From the IMG/VR virus record IMGVR_UViG_2703718871_000027: a stretch of 4,278 bases of DNA; one strand, written 5' to 3'. How positions within the stretch are numbered: position 1 is the stretch's first letter; each line of letters opens with the position of its first letter. Origin of the DNA: a virus. Lineage: Duplodnaviria; Heunggongvirae; Uroviricota; Caudoviricetes. Positions 1 to 4,278 of this stretch are shown in pieces. The notes under the pieces are model-generated. The model was not told the DNA's origin, ran no database searches, and saw only the letters and a list, made by a program, of their open reading frames with translations. The position numbers were made by a program, and so were the translations under genes.

Positions 1-1230
1 ATGAGCAGAGCACTTAACAAACTGAGCGATACACAGCTGAGGAAAATCAACGGCACACCCGCCCAAAAAACAGCCTTTCTTAATGACGGTGGAAACCTGA
101 GCGTCAGGCATTCAACCAGTGGCCTTTTAACCTGGTATTTCACTTACAGGGCCGGAACGGGAAGGGGGGCACCACCGGAACGCATTAAGCTGGGAAATTA
201 TCCTGATCTGAGCCTGAAATCAGCCAGGGAAAAAGCCGCCCAGTGTCGCGCATGGCTGGCAGAGGGGAAAAATCCACGTCATGAAATGAATTACACCGTA
301 CAGGAAGCGTTAAAGCCGGTAACGGTTGGCGATGCGCTCACCTACTGGCTTGAGTCGTACGCAAAGGAAAACCGTGTGGATTATGACCCACTGAAAAAGC
401 GGCTAAATAATCACGTAATACAGCACATTGGCCCTATGCCGCTGGATAAATGCGAGCTACGGCACTGGCTGGCCTGTTTTGATCGGGTGGCAAAGAAAGC
501 CCCTGTTTCCGCCGGGTTCCTGCTACAGACATGCAAGCAGGCGCTTAAGTTCTGCAGGAAGCGGCGCTATGCAATCAGCAACGTTCTTGATGATATGAGT
601 GTGGCGGACGTTGGGAAAAAACCGGATATAAGTGAGCGTGTCTTAAGTAACAAAGAACTTGGCGAATTATTGCAGGCACTGGACAAAAAAATATTTTCCC
701 CTTACTACGTCGCACTAATCCGCCTCCTGATTGTTTTCGGATGCCGGACAGTAGAACTGAGGTTATCGGAGATCGGCGAGTGGGATTTTACCGAAATGCT
801 CTGGACCGTTCCGAAGGAGCACAGCAAAACGAAGGTAGCCATATTCCGGCCCATACCGGAAGCGATACTGCCGTTCGTCACGCAGCTGGTGGAGCAGAAC
901 AGGCACACGGGCTTATTGCTGGGGGAAGTGAAACAGGAAACCAGCGTATCGCAGTACGGCAGATTGGTGCACAGGAGGCTTAAACACCCTCACTGGTCAC
1001 TGCATGACATCCGGCGCACCTTTACAACCATGCTGAACGATTTAGGCGTTGATCCTCACGTCGTGGAGCAGCTTACAGGCCACCAGATGCCAGGAATGCA
1101 ACGCGTGTACAACCATTCCCGCTATATTGATGCGAAACGCAATGCGCTTGATATGTGGGTGGAGCGGTTGGAGATACTGGCGGGAACACATGAAAACGTA
1201 ACCACGCTACCAGTAACCAGAATAAAATAA
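1..1230 (+). CDS. int: Tyrosine recombinase, P4-type integrase family (N-terminal arm-binding domain plus C-terminal catalytic domain)
   Basis: 409-aa ORF from ATG at 1 to TAA at 1228-1230. N-terminus (LSDTQLRK...LNDGGNLSVRHSTSGLLTWYFTYR) fits the P4-integrase arm-binding domain pattern. C-terminal half has the tyrosine-recombinase catalytic residues in order: GCRTVELRLSE (Arg), HDIRRTF (His-x-x-Arg), GHQMPGMQRVYNHSRY (His and Tyr nucleophile). Window starts at the ATG, so an upstream extension cannot be excluded. Confidence 0.9.
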   Translation: MSRALNKLSDTQLRKINGTPAQKTAFLNDGGNLSVRHSTSGLLTWYFTYRAGTGRGAPPERIKLGNYPDLSLKSAREKAAQCRAWLAEGKNPRHEMNYTVQEALKPVTVGDALTYWLESYAKENRVDYDPLKKRLNNHVIQHIGPMPLDKCELRHWLACFDRVAKKAPVSAGFLLQTCKQALKFCRKRRYAISNVLDDMSVADVGKKPDISERVLSNKELGELLQALDKKIFSPYYVALIRLLIVFGCRTVELRLSEIGEWDFTEMLWTVPKEHSKTKVAIFRPIPEAILPFVTQLVEQNRHTGLLLGEVKQETSVSQYGRLVHRRLKHPHWSLHDIRRTFTTMLNDLGVDPHVVEQLTGHQMPGMQRVYNHSRYIDAKRNALDMWVERLEILAGTHENVTTLPVTRIK

Positions 1231-1604: not shown

Positions 1605-1793
1605 GTGTTAAGCACTGATCGGTTTATACGTGAAAAAGAATGCGAAAAGCTAACAGGCCTTAGCCGCTCATGCCGCTACCGCCTGGAAAAGGCCGGACAA
1701 TTCCCATCACGTCGTAAACTTGGCGGGCGTTCTGTTGGCTGGTCTTTATCTGAGGTTTTGGCCTGGAAGGATAGCTGCAAGGCAGTTCACTAA
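1605..1793 (+). CDS. alpA: AlpA/Vis-family (MerR-like HTH) prophage transcriptional regulator
   Basis: 62-aa ORF with GTG start at 1605, preceded by SD AGGGGG (1594-1599, 5-nt spacer). The segment FPSRRKLGGRSVGWSLSEVLAWK matches the conserved AlpA-family signature (FP..R.LG.[KR]SVGW...E...W). Sits immediately downstream of the integrase, as in CP4-57-type elements. Confidence 0.85.
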   Translation: MLSTDRFIREKECEKLTGLSRSCRYRLEKAGQFPSRRKLGGRSVGWSLSEVLAWKDSCKAVH

Positions 1794-1857: not shown

Positions 1858-1973
1858 GAATAAACGCCATAATACTGAGGTATAACCATGATGAAATATA
1901 CGCCCGTACAGGGGCGGGGATTCGTTCGCCCTGGTGAATCTGAAAAGCCATGCTATAGGGTATTTTCAGGCAT

Positions 1974-2001
1974 AAAAAAAGCGGTCCCGATATGGAACCG
2001 C
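1974..2001 (-). terminator. Rho-independent terminator for the leftward A1-B1 operon (weaker in the + direction)
   Basis: GC-rich hairpin gcggtcc...ggaaccgc (1981-2001). On the minus strand it is followed directly by U7 (complement of the A7 run at 1974-1980). On the + strand it is followed by CTTTCT. Lies about 70 nt downstream of the B1 stop. Confidence 0.55.
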
Positions 2002-2069
2002 CTTTCTGAACAATTAACCCGCTGCGCCGTATGTGTCAACAATCATAAGCCCGAACATGATAACCGTGA

Positions 2070-2273
2070 TCAGGCTGGTGGGCAATTACCTTGCTTGTTG
2101 GGGCCGTATTGTGCTGCCATTTTCATCCGTTCAGAACGTGAATATTTTTTTAGAAACTCATCAAGGACAAAAGCGCATGGAGCGAATCTTTCTGATTCAT
2201 GCTCGAGCGCCATATTTTCGTGCTCTCTGTTCGTTTTTTGCGATGGTGTATTGGTTGATTCTTTATTGGTCAT
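2070..2273 (-). CDS. Hypothetical small protein B1 (67 aa), second gene of leftward cassette-1 operon
   Basis: ORF from ATG (complement of 2271-2273) to TGA (complement of 2070-2072), with a weak SD (AGGT) 7 nt upstream. Paralogous to B2: shared MTN N-terminus, F[AV]L[ED][DE]F..KY.R block and PP[AG] C-terminus. Same 57-nt spacing after the A gene in both cassettes. No recognisable domain. Confidence 0.4.
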   Translation of the reverse strand: MTNKESTNTPSQKTNREHENMALEHESERFAPCAFVLDEFLKKYSRSERMKMAAQYGPNKQGNCPPA

Positions 2274-2294
2274 TGTGTGTACCTGTAAAGCAAT

Positions 2295-2321
2295 GCGCCG
2301 TAGTACCTCACGCCACGGCGC
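2295..2321 (-). other. Conserved hairpin between A1 and B1 (possible partial terminator or RNA processing site)
   Basis: Stem gcgccgt (2295-2301) pairs with acggcgc (2315-2321), 13-nt loop. On the minus strand it is followed by AUUGCUUUA. Nearly identical to the copy at 3036-3062 (one loop difference). Confidence 0.4.
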
Positions 2322-2330
2322 TGATAGTAA

Positions 2331-2510
2331 TTATTCTGATTCTTTGGCCTTGCGGCGCTGGCGGCGTTTGATCTCGCCTTTTGCTGCCGTAACTAGAAAT
2401 CCGGCGGTACTTTCGCCAGGTTCTTTAAGTTGCTCAATATCGGTCATTACCTCATGCGGGATTCTGACCGTTGTCATTTGTGATTTTGCGTTCTTTGCAC
2501 CTGTTGCCAT
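2331..2510 (-). CDS. Ribbon-helix-helix (Arc/MetJ-like) DNA-binding protein A1, 59 aa; putative cassette-1 repressor
   Basis: ATG at complement of 2508-2510, preceded by SD AGGAGA (7-nt spacer); stop TAA at complement of 2331-2333. Sequence MATGAKNAKSQMTTVRIPHEVMTDIEQLKEPGESTAGFLVTAAKGEIKRRQRRKAKESE has the RHH layout: beta-strand (TTVRIP), helix A (HEVMTDIEQL), G-x-S turn (PGES), helix B, basic tail. 63 percent identical to A2 with no gaps. The longer 134-aa track ORF (2331..2735) is rejected because it would cross the promoter/operator region. Confidence 0.65.
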   Translation of the reverse strand: MATGAKNAKSQMTTVRIPHEVMTDIEQLKEPGESTAGFLVTAAKGEIKRRQRRKAKESE

Positions 2511-2530
2511 TTCTGGTTCTCCTGATAATC

Positions 2531-2623
2531 GGTGTATTTCAGTATACGCAAAAAAAAAGATAAAAAAAGTCTTGCGGTGTATTTCACCTGAATGTAGATT
2601 TAAAAATGAAGGTGAAATACACC
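2531..2623. promoter_or_regulatory. Cassette-1 divergent promoter/operator region with three GGTGTATTTCACC-type sites
   Basis: Sites at 2531-2542 (ggtgtatttcag), 2576-2588 (ggtgtatttcacc) and, inverted, 2611-2623 (ggtgaaatacacc). Candidate rightward promoter: -35 TTGCGG (2572-2577), 17-bp spacer, -10 TAGATT (2595-2600). Candidate leftward -10 TATACT (complement of 2541-2546), overlapping the first site. Operators overlap promoter elements as expected for repression and autoregulation. Confidence 0.5.
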
Positions 2624-2634
2624 CAAAACAACAA

Positions 2635-2666
2635 CGCCCCGCAGTGATGGGAACACATACGGGGCG
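2635..2666 (+). other. Cassette-1 rightward leader hairpin (7-bp GC stem) ahead of a conserved RBS and ORF start
   Basis: cgccccg (2635-2641) pairs with cggggcg (2660-2666), 18-nt loop. Followed by TCTAACCAA, SD GAGG (2686-2689) and ATG 2698. The same order of elements occurs in cassette 2 (hairpin 3385-3411, TCTAACCAA, GAGGAG, ATG 3444). Confidence 0.4.
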
Positions 2667-2747
2667 TCTAACCAAACCATTAATTGAGGTAACGATTATG
2701 GCTATAAAAGAGCATAGCTTACTCTTTATACACACACAAACGCCCCG

Positions 2748-2767
2748 GAAACGGAATAATCCGTTTC
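2748..2767 (-). terminator. Weak hairpin at the 3' end of the cassette-2 leftward operon (downstream of B2)
   Basis: gaaacgg (2748-2754) pairs with ccgtttc (2761-2767), loop aataat. On the minus strand it is followed by a G/U-rich stretch (CGGGGCGUUUGUGUGUGU), not a clean U-tract. On the + strand a displaced T-run (2777-2780) follows. Confidence 0.3.
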
Positions 2768-2786
2768 ATAGTTCGGTTTTGTGCAC

Positions 2787-3014
2787 TCATCCTGGCGGTC
2801 GGTTTTTGCCGGATTTAAGCCGCCGTGGGTATTTATCGACAAAATCTTCAAGGGCAAATTTTTCTGGTGGCACTAAGCGCGGCGCTGGTGGTGGTATTTT
2901 TGTTCTGGTTAGTTCTTCCTCAACTCTGGCGCAGGCTTCTGACTGCCTTTGCCGGATGATTTCATCATCTTGCGTTTGCGTGTCTTGTATTGGTGATAGT
3001 GTGTTGTTGGTCAT
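2787..3014 (-). CDS. Hypothetical small protein B2 (75 aa, Pro/charge-rich), second gene of leftward cassette-2 operon
   Basis: ATG at complement of 3012-3014 with SD AGGG 7 nt upstream; stop TGA at complement of 2787-2789. Paralog of B1 with the same gene order and 57-nt spacing after the A gene. No recognisable domain. Confidence 0.4.
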   Translation of the reverse strand: MTNNTLSPIQDTQTQDDEIIRQRQSEACARVEEELTRTKIPPPAPRLVPPEKFALEDFVDKYPRRLKSGKNRPPG

Positions 3015-3035
3015 GATACTGCCCTGTAAAGCAAT

Positions 3036-3062
3036 GCGCCGTAGTACCTCACACCACGGCGC
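3036..3062 (-). other. Conserved hairpin between A2 and B2 (copy of 2295-2321)
   Basis: Stem gcgccgt (3036-3042) pairs with acggcgc (3056-3062). Identical stem and near-identical loop to the cassette-1 copy. Confidence 0.4.
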
Positions 3063-3071
3063 TGATAGTGA

Positions 3072-3251
3072 TTATTCTGATTCTTTGGCCTTGCGACGCT
3101 GGCGGTATTCAACTTCCCGCTTTAATGCAGCTGTAACAAACTGCCCTGTACTTTCGCCGGGCATTTTTACCGCCTCAACATTGTTCATAACTTCATGTGG
3201 AACCCTTGCCGCAACTGTTTGTGATTTTGCGTTTACTGCTTTTGTCGCCAT
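3072..3251 (-). CDS. Ribbon-helix-helix (Arc/MetJ-like) DNA-binding protein A2, 59 aa; putative cassette-2 repressor
   Basis: ATG at complement of 3249-3251 with SD GAGGGG 8 nt upstream (an in-frame GTG 9 nt further upstream is possible but has no SD); stop TAA at complement of 3072-3074. Sequence MATKAVNAKSQTVAARVPHEVMNNVEAVKMPGESTGQFVTAALKREVEYRQRRKAKESE aligns with the Arc repressor fold pattern (beta-strand, P-x-E-V helix A, G-x-S turn, helix B). Paralog of A1. Confidence 0.65.
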   Translation of the reverse strand: MATKAVNAKSQTVAARVPHEVMNNVEAVKMPGESTGQFVTAALKREVEYRQRRKAKESE

Positions 3252-3280
3252 GTTGAGCACCCCTCATAAAAAACAAATGC

Positions 3281-3354
3281 AGTATGCAGGAAAAAAAACA
3301 AGTGTTCAACACTTGACGTGTTTAACACCTCGATTTAAATTGGTGTTCAACACC
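3281..3354. promoter_or_regulatory. Cassette-2 divergent promoter/operator region with three GTGTT-N-AACAC palindromes
   Basis: Palindromes at 3302-3312 (gtgttcaacac), 3318-3328 (gtgtttaacac) and 3342-3354 (ggtgttcaacacc). Rightward promoter: -35 TTGACG (3313-3318), 17-bp spacer, -10 TAAATT (3336-3341); the sites sit upstream of -35, in the spacer, and over the predicted start site. Leftward promoter: -35 TTGAAC (complement of 3304-3309, inside the first site), 17-bp spacer, -10 CATACT (complement of 3281-3286). Confidence 0.55.
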
Positions 3355-3384
3355 TTATTTAGGCAAGGTGTAGAAACGACGAAA

Positions 3385-3411
3385 CCCCGCACTGTAGGAG
3401 CAGTAACGGGG
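3385..3411 (+). other. Cassette-2 rightward leader hairpin (counterpart of 2635-2666)
   Basis: Outer stem ccccg (3385-3389) pairs with cgggg (3407-3411); inner stem actg (3391-3394) pairs with cagt (3401-3404); loop taggag. Followed by TCTAACCAA, SD GAGGAG (3433-3438) and ATG 3444. Confidence 0.4.
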
Positions 3412-3443
3412 CTTCTAACCAACAACGTAAACGAGGAGCCGTT

Positions 3444-3638
3444 ATGGTTGCCGTAAATCATATACCACACCTTGTACACACACAAACGGCCTTTGTGTGG
3501 CGTTTTCTGGCACTGAGTGCCGGAGAATCTCAAATAATCCACGTAACCGCCTGGACGGAACGCGAAGCACGTAACCGTTGCCCGTCAGGTTGTGTTGCTG
3601 TATTCGCCGCCCGTATTCGCCAGGGGGTAGGCTTATGA
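3444..3638 (+). CDS. Hypothetical protein (64 aa), first gene of rightward operon
   Basis: Strong SD GAGGAG with 5-nt spacer to ATG 3444. N-terminus M-[AV]-[IV]-x-x-H-x-x-x-[FL]-[IV]-H-T-Q-T is shared with the cassette-1 start at 2698. Stop TGA (3636-3638) overlaps the next ATG (ATGA), indicating translational coupling. Caveat: hairpins lie inside codons 12-27, so the 5' part may act as RNA. Confidence 0.45.
   Translation: MVAVNHIPHLVHTQTAFVWRFLALSAGESQIIHVTAWTEREARNRCPSGCVAVFAARIRQGVGL
3479..3508 (+). terminator. Terminator/attenuator-like hairpin inside the 5' end of ORF 3444-3638
   Basis: cacacaaa (3479-3486) pairs with tttgtgtg (3492-3499), loop cggcc, followed by GCGTTTTCT (3500-3508). 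A second hairpin follows immediately: ctggcac-tga-gtgccgg (3507-3523). Confidence 0.3.
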
Positions 3639-3871: not shown

Positions 3872-4079
3872 TGACCGTTATTTTAAATTAATGAGCCATG
3901 CAGAAAACGCACTGACTAACAGTGAATGCTTGCGGAAAATATTGCTTATCTGGCTTGATGGTTTAAGTGATGCGCCGGAAGGTGAACGTGAATCTAATCT
4001 TGCTGGTGCGTTTATTTCATTACTCGATACGGTAATCACCGAATTAAATAAAGCGATCGAAATTCACGATAAAAAATAA
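3864..4079 (+). CDS. Hypothetical acidic protein (71 aa), translationally coupled
   Basis: ATG 3864 preceded by SD AAGGGG (3852-3857, 6-nt spacer); overlaps the upstream stop (ATGCATGA, 3864-3871). The alternative ATG at 3819 lacks an SD. Stop TAA at 4077-4079. Confidence 0.5.
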   Translation: MHDDRYFKLMSHAENALTNSECLRKILLIWLDGLSDAPEGERESNLAGAFISLLDTVITELNKAIEIHDKK

Positions 4080-4095
4080 ACGCGGAATAAAAACC

Positions 4096-4278
4096 ATGAA
4101 AAAGAAAATTTCTGGCTTAACTGCTAGTGGCAACACTCACCCTAAATTTACGCGCGGCGATATTTACCGCGACCAGTACGGCGGCACGGTAACGATTAAA
4201 GGTGTAGAAGAGCGACGCATTACCTACCGCCGTGAAGGCTACGAATATGACTGCGTGATGCCTGTTTATCAGTTCCGG
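4096..4278 (+). CDS. Small prophage protein, 3'-truncated by the window end; resembles the DUF4222-type small proteins of enterobacterial P4-like islands (from memory, not searched)
   Basis: ATG 4096, open to the window end (61 codons). Motif YRDQYGGTVTIKGVEERRITYRREGYEYDCVMPVYQF matches my recollection of the DUF4222 pattern (Y.D..G..V.......V.F.R.GY...C..P...F). Weak SD. Confidence 0.5.
   Translation, partial: MKKKISGLTASGNTHPKFTRGDIYRDQYGGTVTIKGVEERRITYRREGYEYDCVMPVYQFR

Follow-up and report, generated by a model that had tools for sequence, protein, structure and literature searches.

Gene order and the two immunity cassettes

The stretch of DNA analysed here, 4,278 nucleotides of the IMG/VR virus record IMGVR_UViG_2703718871_000027 (the window), forms the left end of a capsid-forming phage-inducible chromosomal island (cf-PICI), a phage-satellite island of Escherichia coli. 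In order it carries int, alpA, two diverged tandem cassettes B1-A1 and B2-A2, and an Icd/Kil-like gene. Our subject is a reading frame without stop codons that starts past alpA, runs antisense through both cassettes and closes just inside the Icd/Kil-like gene. An earlier reading made from the sequence alone (the sequence-only reading) had noticed the part of this frame that begins in cassette 1, and had proposed that it belongs to a hierarchical switch between the cassettes. The observation is confirmed and is stronger than was first noticed; the interpretation is partly supported.

The tyrosine integrase gene at the left end of the island occupies 1..1230 on the plus strand, and was recognized as an open reading frame (ORF) with an integrase annotation in near-identical E. 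coli elements. On the same strand are alpA at 1605..1793 (Pfam Phage_AlpA, E = 5e-18) and the Icd/Kil-like gene, the first of the rightward operon, at 3444..3638 (NCBIfam phage_ICD_like, E = 5e-18). Between them, on the minus strand, lie B1 (2070..2273), A1 (2331..2510), B2 (2787..3014) and A2 (3072..3251). A1 (NCBIfam NF041551, E = 3.8e-17) and A2 are YlcI/YnfO-family ribbon-helix-helix (RHH) proteins, presumed to be the repressors of cassettes 1 and 2 respectively. They are 61% identical, and both match NCBIfam YlcI_YnfO_N. B1 is a small protein, 36% identical to B2, and belongs to PHROG 21027, for which no function is listed there; PHROGs gives the A family as "unknown function". Pfam returned no match for A, B, Icd or the long ORFs, and PDB sequence searches with A2, a profile of A and the alternative RHH protein yielded nothing above noise.

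The AlphaFold model of A2 (pLDDT 86.6) has an extended N-terminal segment and two helices with a G-E-S turn between them, which is the β-strand-helix-helix fold of the Arc/MetJ/CopG proteins. The turn, G32-E33-S34, fits the G-x-S/T hallmark of RHH proteins and is invariant in 34 homologues. The same fold is assigned to A1 because its paralogue A2 was modelled and the two are 61% identical.

The cassettes (approximately 2070-2745 and 2787-3495) align with a mean column identity of 75%, and the alignment begins at the 3' end of B and extends some 16 codons into the first rightward ORF. They have a near-identical core (2263-2387 and 3004-3128), which contains the C-terminus of A, RRQRRKAKESE, and a GC-rich 11-bp hairpin between A and B with the tail AUUGCUUUAC; on the minus strand this hairpin is at 3036..3062 in cassette 2, with its A1-B1 counterpart at 2295-2321. 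Within the core, about 85 nt (2284-2368 and 3025-3110) are almost identical between the cassettes, and the flanks are about 60-70% identical. The tract could serve as an attenuator or as a crossover site in module swapping, or it could mark a gene conversion.

Each cassette has its own set of predicted operators. The repeat GGTGTATTTCACC is found at 2531-2543, 2576-2588 and, inverted, at 2611-2623 (three sites where 0.10 are expected), and these copies flank or overlap the −10 element of the leftward promoter PL1 (AGTATA, 2541-2546) and the rightward promoter-like site PR1. The repeat GTGTTCAACAC is found at 3302, 3318 and 3343 (region 3302..3353), where it surrounds PR2. Neither repeat is present in the other cassette, and across genera the predicted operators track the type of A. 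We infer that A1 and A2 are heteroimmune repressors, each regulating its own synthesis. An element in Edwardsiella hoshinae (L007) encodes at 4001-4171 a protein 100% identical to A2 over 57 residues and has the same operator sequence; it is a single-cassette element with an integrase different from that of the window. This case fits the reports of cross-genus spread of cf-PICIs.

The two rightward sites differ in quality. PR1 (2572..2600, plus strand) reads TTGCGG (2572-2577)-17-TAGATT (2595-2600) and has a weakened −35 element; with 7 of the 12 consensus positions, it was missed by the consensus scan. PR2 (3313-3341, plus strand) reads TTGACG-17-TAAATT and was flagged by the same scan.

A stop-free frame antisense to the repressor genes

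The eta-like frame is open for 522 codons on the plus strand (1888..3456). Its ATG at 1888 has GAGG 7 nt upstream and lies 95 nt past the alpA stop; the whole open stretch is 1879-3456. The frame is antisense to B1, A1, B2 and A2 and spans all of the non-coding stretches, including both promoter/operator regions. In the five non-coding stretches, which amount to 783 nt, it contains no stops, compared with 19 and 32 in the other two plus-strand frames, and the probabilities obtained by shuffling multiply to approximately 2e-7. Synonymous recoding of the four antisense genes left the frame open with probabilities of 0.60, 0.37, 0.13 and 0.23, a further factor of approximately 0.007. The combined chance of an open frame is approximately 1e-9.

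The same property is found in relatives. The antisense frame has no stops in any of 64 unique A genes, including those of single-cassette loci in Xenorhabdus, Yersinia, Pectobacterium, Kosakonia and Klebsiella. Across 76 unique intergenic regions, measured rightward from the start codon of A, the median distance to the first stop is 319 nt, against 18 and 29 nt in the other frames, and at least 150 nt are open in 78% of the regions, against 0% and 1% in the control frames. Of 51 unique regulatory regions, 39 have a frame that extends to the ATG of the first rightward gene, and in most of the others it stops within about 30 nt of that ATG. It coincides with the frame of the first rightward gene in 28 of the 51 (17 expected) and is continuous with that gene in 25. 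At its other end the frame usually starts with a good Shine-Dalgarno sequence and an ATG that is 0-40 nt from the stop of alpA or of the next gene, or overlaps it. In one single-cassette element (L003) an antirepressor gene of the AntA/AntB type (1303-2103) lies between alpA and the open frame, and the ATG of the frame, with GGAGG upstream, sits 8 nt before the stop of the antirepressor gene.

We consider that the immunity region is built like the vis-eta/kil region of phage P4, with a protein repressor in place of the CI RNA and with translated read-through linked to alpA; we would put the probability of this at about 55%. By analogy with P4, the stop-free frame probably lets induced transcription pass the repressor genes into the replication genes. 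A helper phage would turn on alpA, and the transcript would extend rightward. Translation of the stop-free frame would protect it from termination, which in P4 is by Rho, and the transcript would then cross the A1 and A2 genes into the replication and packaging operon regardless of the state of the repressors, with the rightward polymerase colliding on its way with leftward transcription of A. The suppression of termination by translation of the long ORF is carried over from P4, and what the window contributes is the avoidance of stops. Since the open frame is also present in single-cassette relatives and in P4, read-through across A2-B2 appears to be a conserved design and not an accident of duplication. 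On these comparisons, the conserved feature is the path linked to alpA and not specifically the cassette-1 promoter.

Several observations weigh against this interpretation. Promoters, operators, translation and Rho sensitivity are all deduced from the sequence, and the loci compared are linked by descent and recombination, so that the counts overstate their independence. The full open frame is missing from about one quarter of the unique regulatory regions. In the window itself the long frame closes 12 nt past the ATG of the Icd/Kil-like gene, and in another frame than that gene. A start next to alpA is not universal: in L002 a difference of 1 nt puts the equivalent of ATG 1888 out of the open frame. 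Variants with a run of eight rather than nine adenines (L049, L073, L032) break the intergenic frame, although these may be either real phase variation or homopolymer sequencing errors. Composition (C minus G, as a proxy for Rho loading) gave no clear rut-like signal except antisense to A2. The −35 element of PR1 is degraded in the cassette-1 types of the window and of L051 and L056, which argues against a need for PR1. Finally, AlpA of Pseudomonas aeruginosa is a processive antiterminator, and if AlpA of PICIs acted in the same way, it could add to translational protection or replace it.

The homopolymer in question is at 2550-2558 of the window, where a run of nine adenines lies in the open frame in the divergent promoter region; with eight adenines the frame closes 52-64 nt past the A start.

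The cassette-1 rightward elements and the junction

The sequence-only reading had assigned to cassette 1 a complete set of rightward elements, namely a promoter, a leader hairpin, a ribosome-binding site and the start of an ORF, and all of them are found where it placed them, the first as the promoter-like site PR1. The leader hairpin of cassette 1 is at 2634..2667 (plus strand), with the conserved TCTAACCAA directly after it, and its homologue in cassette 2 is at 3383..3413 (plus strand). The cassette-1 hairpin is supported by covariation: over 24 distinct homologous leaders 90.7% of cells are paired, with double-sided changes in 6 of the 10 pairs, a degree of pairing reached by none of 500 shuffles and by none of the slid registers, all of which are less than 50% paired. 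These figures were counted on a hand-drawn structure, and RNAalifold alone gives 6 pairs only, owing to register shifts. The ribosome-binding site GAGG (2686-2689), the ATG at 2698 and the first 16 or so codons of a truncated Icd/Kil-like gene, here called icd', follow at 2686..2745 on the plus strand, with homology ending near 2745. The icd' start is in the frame of the 1888-3456 ORF, and from it 252 codons are open, to 3456. The further claim that this frame runs without a stop through B2 and A2 therefore holds, far beyond chance.

Directly after the leader hairpin the sequence YTCTWACCA is single-stranded and nearly invariant (2668-2676 and 3414-3422, and in L009, L026 and L031). Its CCTCTTACCAC variants resemble the boxA sequences of lambda and rrn (GCTCTTTA and CGCTCTTA), and in rrn too the order is a hairpin and then boxA. 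It may be a site for NusB/NusE.

Between icd' and B2 there is a junction hairpin, GAAACGGA/UCCGUUUC, at 2748..2767 on the plus strand. It had been called weak, and rightly so: with an 8-bp stem, the displaced tail AUAGUUCG and z = −0.95, it is a poor intrinsic terminator on both strands. It was considered as the normal terminator of B2 and rejected, because single-cassette B2 loci, which diverge from the window at the B2 stop, carry a terminator of their own 70-200 nt past it. No such terminator was found downstream of B2 in the window. Leftward transcripts from PL2 should thus cross PR1 into A1-B1, where the leftward unit ends in a strong intrinsic terminator (1975..2007, minus strand; 14-bp stem, U7 tail, −23.7 kcal/mol, z = −2.83). 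Cassette 2 has at the position corresponding to the junction hairpin a terminator-like hairpin, CACACAAACGGCCTTTGTGTG plus GCGTTTTCTG, at 3479-3509, which is formed by the HTQT and FVWRF codons, some 12 codons into the Icd-like ORF, and folds no better than shuffles (z = +0.59). In cassette 1 the hairpin at 2748-2767 stands in place of this stem; L047 and L048 retain the original stem.

The junction is widespread. Of 5426 complete E. coli genomes, 119 contain its segment 2690-2830, and most of these are strains that produce Shiga toxin; 21 of the 119 have the cassette-1 type of the window. The double cassette is present, for example, in E. coli O111:H- 11128 (NC_013364.1) and STEC2017-197 (NZ_CP075663.1), and the leader is carried by about 1468 E. 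coli genomes. A megablast tally of cassette-1 types is confounded by the presence of the RHH-b module in single cassettes as well. Among 39 species-representative loci of other genera, none has two A genes. In IMG/VR, loci with B2 are either single-cassette, with B2 followed directly by alpA or int, or double-cassette. The double-cassette elements are mosaic, with varying integrase and replication modules, at least five cassette-1 repressor/operator types (two YlcI-type and three Arc-like) and about 12 cassette-2 types. The DNA that starts at TCTAACCAA, immediately 3' of the leader hairpin, and ends at the stop codon of B2 is almost invariant; L047 and L048 have a junction that is 75%-diverged yet collinear. 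The homology of B2 with single-cassette elements ends exactly at its stop codon, from which it follows that the junction is old and was retained while both immunity modules were exchanged.

The junction is also in frame. It joins the N-terminus of icd' to the antisense-B2 translation 'PGGRFLPDLS...', which is part of the open frame in single-cassette B2 elements too. By this comparison cassette 1 is an old in-frame fusion, in which the leader and about 16 icd/kil codons were joined at the B2 stop to an open frame of the B2 type. The icd' frame is open for 205-429 codons, and always beyond the start codon of A2, in 22 of 22 double-cassette loci, which represent about 12 A2 types and 2 B2 alleles. 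Where cassette 1 is of an Arc-like type, the upstream frame closes 11 nt short of the icd' ATG and gives way to the icd' frame, so that the icd' start is needed at least as a relay.

These observations suggest what cassette 1 might add to the path from alpA. The icd' ATG would be a relay or an entry start codon for crossing B2-A2. PR1 would be a second internal promoter, similar to PLE of P4 and held by A1, whose transcripts are equipped for the same path. That PR1 functions as such an A1-gated second entry is a suggestion we make tentatively. Its extension to a gate with two inputs, in which PR1 (under A1) and PR2 (under A2) both feed the rightward operon on one translated path, is more speculative still. 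Transcripts from PR1, translated from the icd' ATG, would traverse and oppose the A2-B2 operon, and in the quiescent state transcripts from PL2 would cross PR1 into A1-B1. If this were so, both repressors would be required to keep a double-cassette island quiet; incoming satellites of either type would meet its immunity, and it would itself escape the immunity set by residents of either single type. This would also explain why the junction has been kept while at least five cassette-1 types and about 12 cassette-2 types shuffle around it.

Alternatively, the rightward elements of cassette 1 could be functionless leftovers. In that case A1, with or without B1, would be kept as a second immunity repressor with autoregulatory operators, and the frame would be kept only for read-through from alpA. 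The sequence-only reading had mentioned a decaying remnant of the duplication, and the truncation of icd', which lacks its C-terminal domain, agrees with this. So does the state of PR1, whose −35 element carries C at a position occupied by A in 14 orthologous single-cassette regions, and for which the type in L051/L056 has TTTACC or TTTGCC in cassette 1 against TTGACC in cassette 2. Some double-cassette loci have no B1 or a frameshifted one, and among most loci the junction is too similar to reveal selection on the ribosome-binding site or the ATG. On the other hand, the start and the frame of icd' are retained and the fusion is in frame, the RHHb-type elements need the icd' start at least as a relay, and the three Arc-like cassette-1 types retain the near-consensus promoter TTGACA-16/17-TATAAT, TATGAT or TACTAT. 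Decay could well account for some of the parts, but we doubt that it accounts for the whole.

The hierarchical switch of the sequence-only reading supposed that PR1 acts mainly by lowering A2, through convergent transcription or antisense RNA, so that loss of A1 derepresses cassette 2 indirectly. A switch from cassette 1 to cassette 2 is possible from the arrangement, in which about 690 nt, free of any convincing terminator, separate the facing PR1 and PL2, several cassette-1 types have near-consensus rightward promoters, and the icd' frame is open across B2-A2 in every double-cassette locus. In P4 an open frame of this kind is the property that keeps read-through transcripts unterminated, and the cassette-1 frame across B2-A2 matches it by analogy. 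The convergence of PR1 transcription on A2-B2 thus stands in so far as no effective terminator separates them. However, the open frame is not specific to cassette 1: it starts past alpA, and it is present without an upstream PR1 in single-cassette elements and in P4. Moreover, a transcript that crosses A2 enters the rightward operon directly, so a decrease in A2 is not needed for the effect. The weakening of the PR1 −35 in two cassette-1 types also speaks against the switch, and read-through from PL2 should occlude PR1, which is the reverse of the proposed hierarchy. We regard this explanation as unlikely.

It is very improbable that the long frame encodes a functional protein whose sequence matters. 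It does have a Shine-Dalgarno sequence and an ATG, N-termini of the form M[PST]xKTKA recur in several genera, and in one genome PGAP annotates part of it as a hypothetical protein. However, a Pfam/NCBIfam search of the frame found no domain besides the Icd-like end, its translation is rich in Cys, Ser and Phe, as expected of antisense translation, and the sequence has been swapped wholesale along with the immunity modules. The comparisons indicate that the feature kept is the avoidance of stops and not a protein sequence. Lastly, a chance or 'shadow' ORF of the antisense genes was rejected: the wobble positions of the frame coincide with those of A and B, the relation that most often gives rise to shadow ORFs, and the genes taken singly would often leave it open (0.13-0.60), but neither accounts for the stop-free non-coding DNA or for its recurrence across the intergenic regions.

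The island and known systems

The gene set assigns the element to the cf-PICIs of the EcCIEDL933 type, in which alpA is reported to be essential for induction. The genes beyond the end of the window were read in two E. coli elements that are 96-98% identical to it (L001 and L002). Downstream these have small ORFs, a RepA helicase, SSB and PerC, and then a packaging module with major capsid protein, prohead protease, portal, head completion proteins, HNH endonuclease and both terminase subunits. They thus have what marks a cf-PICI, namely int and alpA at the left end, packaging genes of their own and an island of about 15 kb. A match in EDL933 (L046) turned out to be a remnant rather than the cf-PICI.

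Some smaller features were noted in the window. There are three Chi sites, GCTGGTGG, at 885-892, 2074-2081 and 2884-2891, all on the plus strand, where shuffles give 0.12. One is at the 3' end of B1 and one within B2, and in single-cassette B2 loci a Chi site adjoins the B2 stop; they may protect concatemers from RecBCD, or be hot spots of module exchange. The gap between int and alpA contains a perfect 16-bp palindrome, CAGTATGCGCATACTG, at 1248-1263, which has CAGTATRCNCA, preceded by a T- or A-run, in common with the −10 region of PL1 (2540-2550). The sequence CAGTATAC is kept in nearly all of the 76 intergenic regions. The likeness may reflect a common type of promoter or a shared binding site, for example of AlpA. 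A search of the window against Rfam at E <= 1 gave no match for the leader hairpins, and its only match was a sub-threshold one to BSnc120 at 1381-1462, also in the int-alpA gap. This is a plus-strand hairpin, GGCATAAAA/TTTTATGCC, followed by TTTGTATT, which for BSnc120 scores 27 bits vs 114, and it resembles a terminator placed upstream of alpA. At the alpA start codon (1605-1615), GTGTTAAGCAC resembles the cassette-2 operator with 2 mismatches; as 1.3 such sites are expected, this is probably chance.

Among known systems, EcCICFT073 and EcCIEDL933 belong to the same family of elements and have int and alpA co-oriented at the left end. The papers on regulation by AlpA in Gram-negative PICIs and cf-PICIs do not describe an RHH cassette or an antisense-spanning frame, and the founding paper on Gram-negative PICIs identified no global repressor.

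Other phages share single features with the window. Coliphage 186 (pR/pL) and phage P2 (Pe/Pc) have switches based on interference between convergent promoters, which are tens of bp apart. As in these, the lytic and repressor promoters of the window, which are promoter-like by sequence, are face to face with no terminator between them; unlike in these, PR1 and PL2 are separated by two genes. The immI region of P22 has the RHH repressors Arc and Mnt at divergent promoters, together with the sar antisense RNA. P22 immI is not known to have the long translated read-through ORF proposed for the window, or a tandem heteroimmune duplication.

In the immI region of P1 (c4 RNA - icd - ant), a small ORF of the Icd type opens the operon, as it does in the window. 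Riedel, Heinrich and Schuster in 1993 reportedly found that translation of icd in P1 is needed for transcription into the downstream genes. The regulator in P1 is an antisense RNA derived by processing of the same transcript, whereas in the window Rfam finds no RNA of the C4 family.

The closest parallel is P4. Forti et al. in 1999 are said to have found that the P4 terminator concerned is Rho-dependent. In P4, with vis followed by eta/kil, the internal promoter PLE and the late promoter PLL, as in the window, an alpA/vis homologue precedes a long ORF, within which lie the immunity determinant and an internal promoter. We found that the frame downstream of vis, the alpA homologue of P4, is open for 217 codons and that its ATG overlaps the vis stop; the long ORF of the window likewise starts beside the stop of alpA. 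A constitutive promoter lies within eta, and its transcripts end early through the CI RNA and seqA (PMC10111431). Only the upstream late promoter gives full-length Eta, which is translationally coupled to the alpA homologue; its translation blocks termination, which allows read-through from the late promoter, and Kil is a nested short product (PMC10111431).

Eta of P4 consists of a Phage_ASH domain and a C-terminal phage_ICD_like domain, and the latter also matches the first rightward gene of the window. In P4 and in part of this family the long ORF ends in an Icd/Kil-like domain, with a short Kil/Icd gene nested at its 3' end. The nesting is in frame for icd' and for 25 of 51 unique relatives. 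It is not so for the actual Icd/Kil-like gene of the window, which, unlike in P4, is in a different frame from the long ORF. Three further differences are apparent. The long ORF of the window lacks the Ash domain of Eta; the tandem duplicated cassette has no counterpart in P4; and the immunity factor of P4 is the CI RNA, whereas that of the window is presumably a small RHH protein encoded antisense within the long ORF, with divergent promoters and predicted operators. Consistent with this, immunity of the CI RNA/seqA type was not found in the window, and the Rfam C4 and isrK models at their gathering thresholds detected the P4 control and nothing in the window or nine related loci.

What is new here is an apparent P4-type eta/kil read-through design with an antisense-encoded protein repressor, duplicated as two heteroimmune cassettes. 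For the silencing of Gram-negative PICIs and their switching on by AlpA, the analysis supplies concrete candidate parts: a small RHH family with cognate predicted operators, a conserved structured leader and a stop-free frame linked to alpA. The double-cassette islands offer a natural system for stacked immunity and competition between satellites. Above all, PICI induction would be tied to the eta/kil logic of P4, which predicts that a single stop codon placed in 'non-coding' DNA should block induction, and should do so in a Rho-dependent manner.

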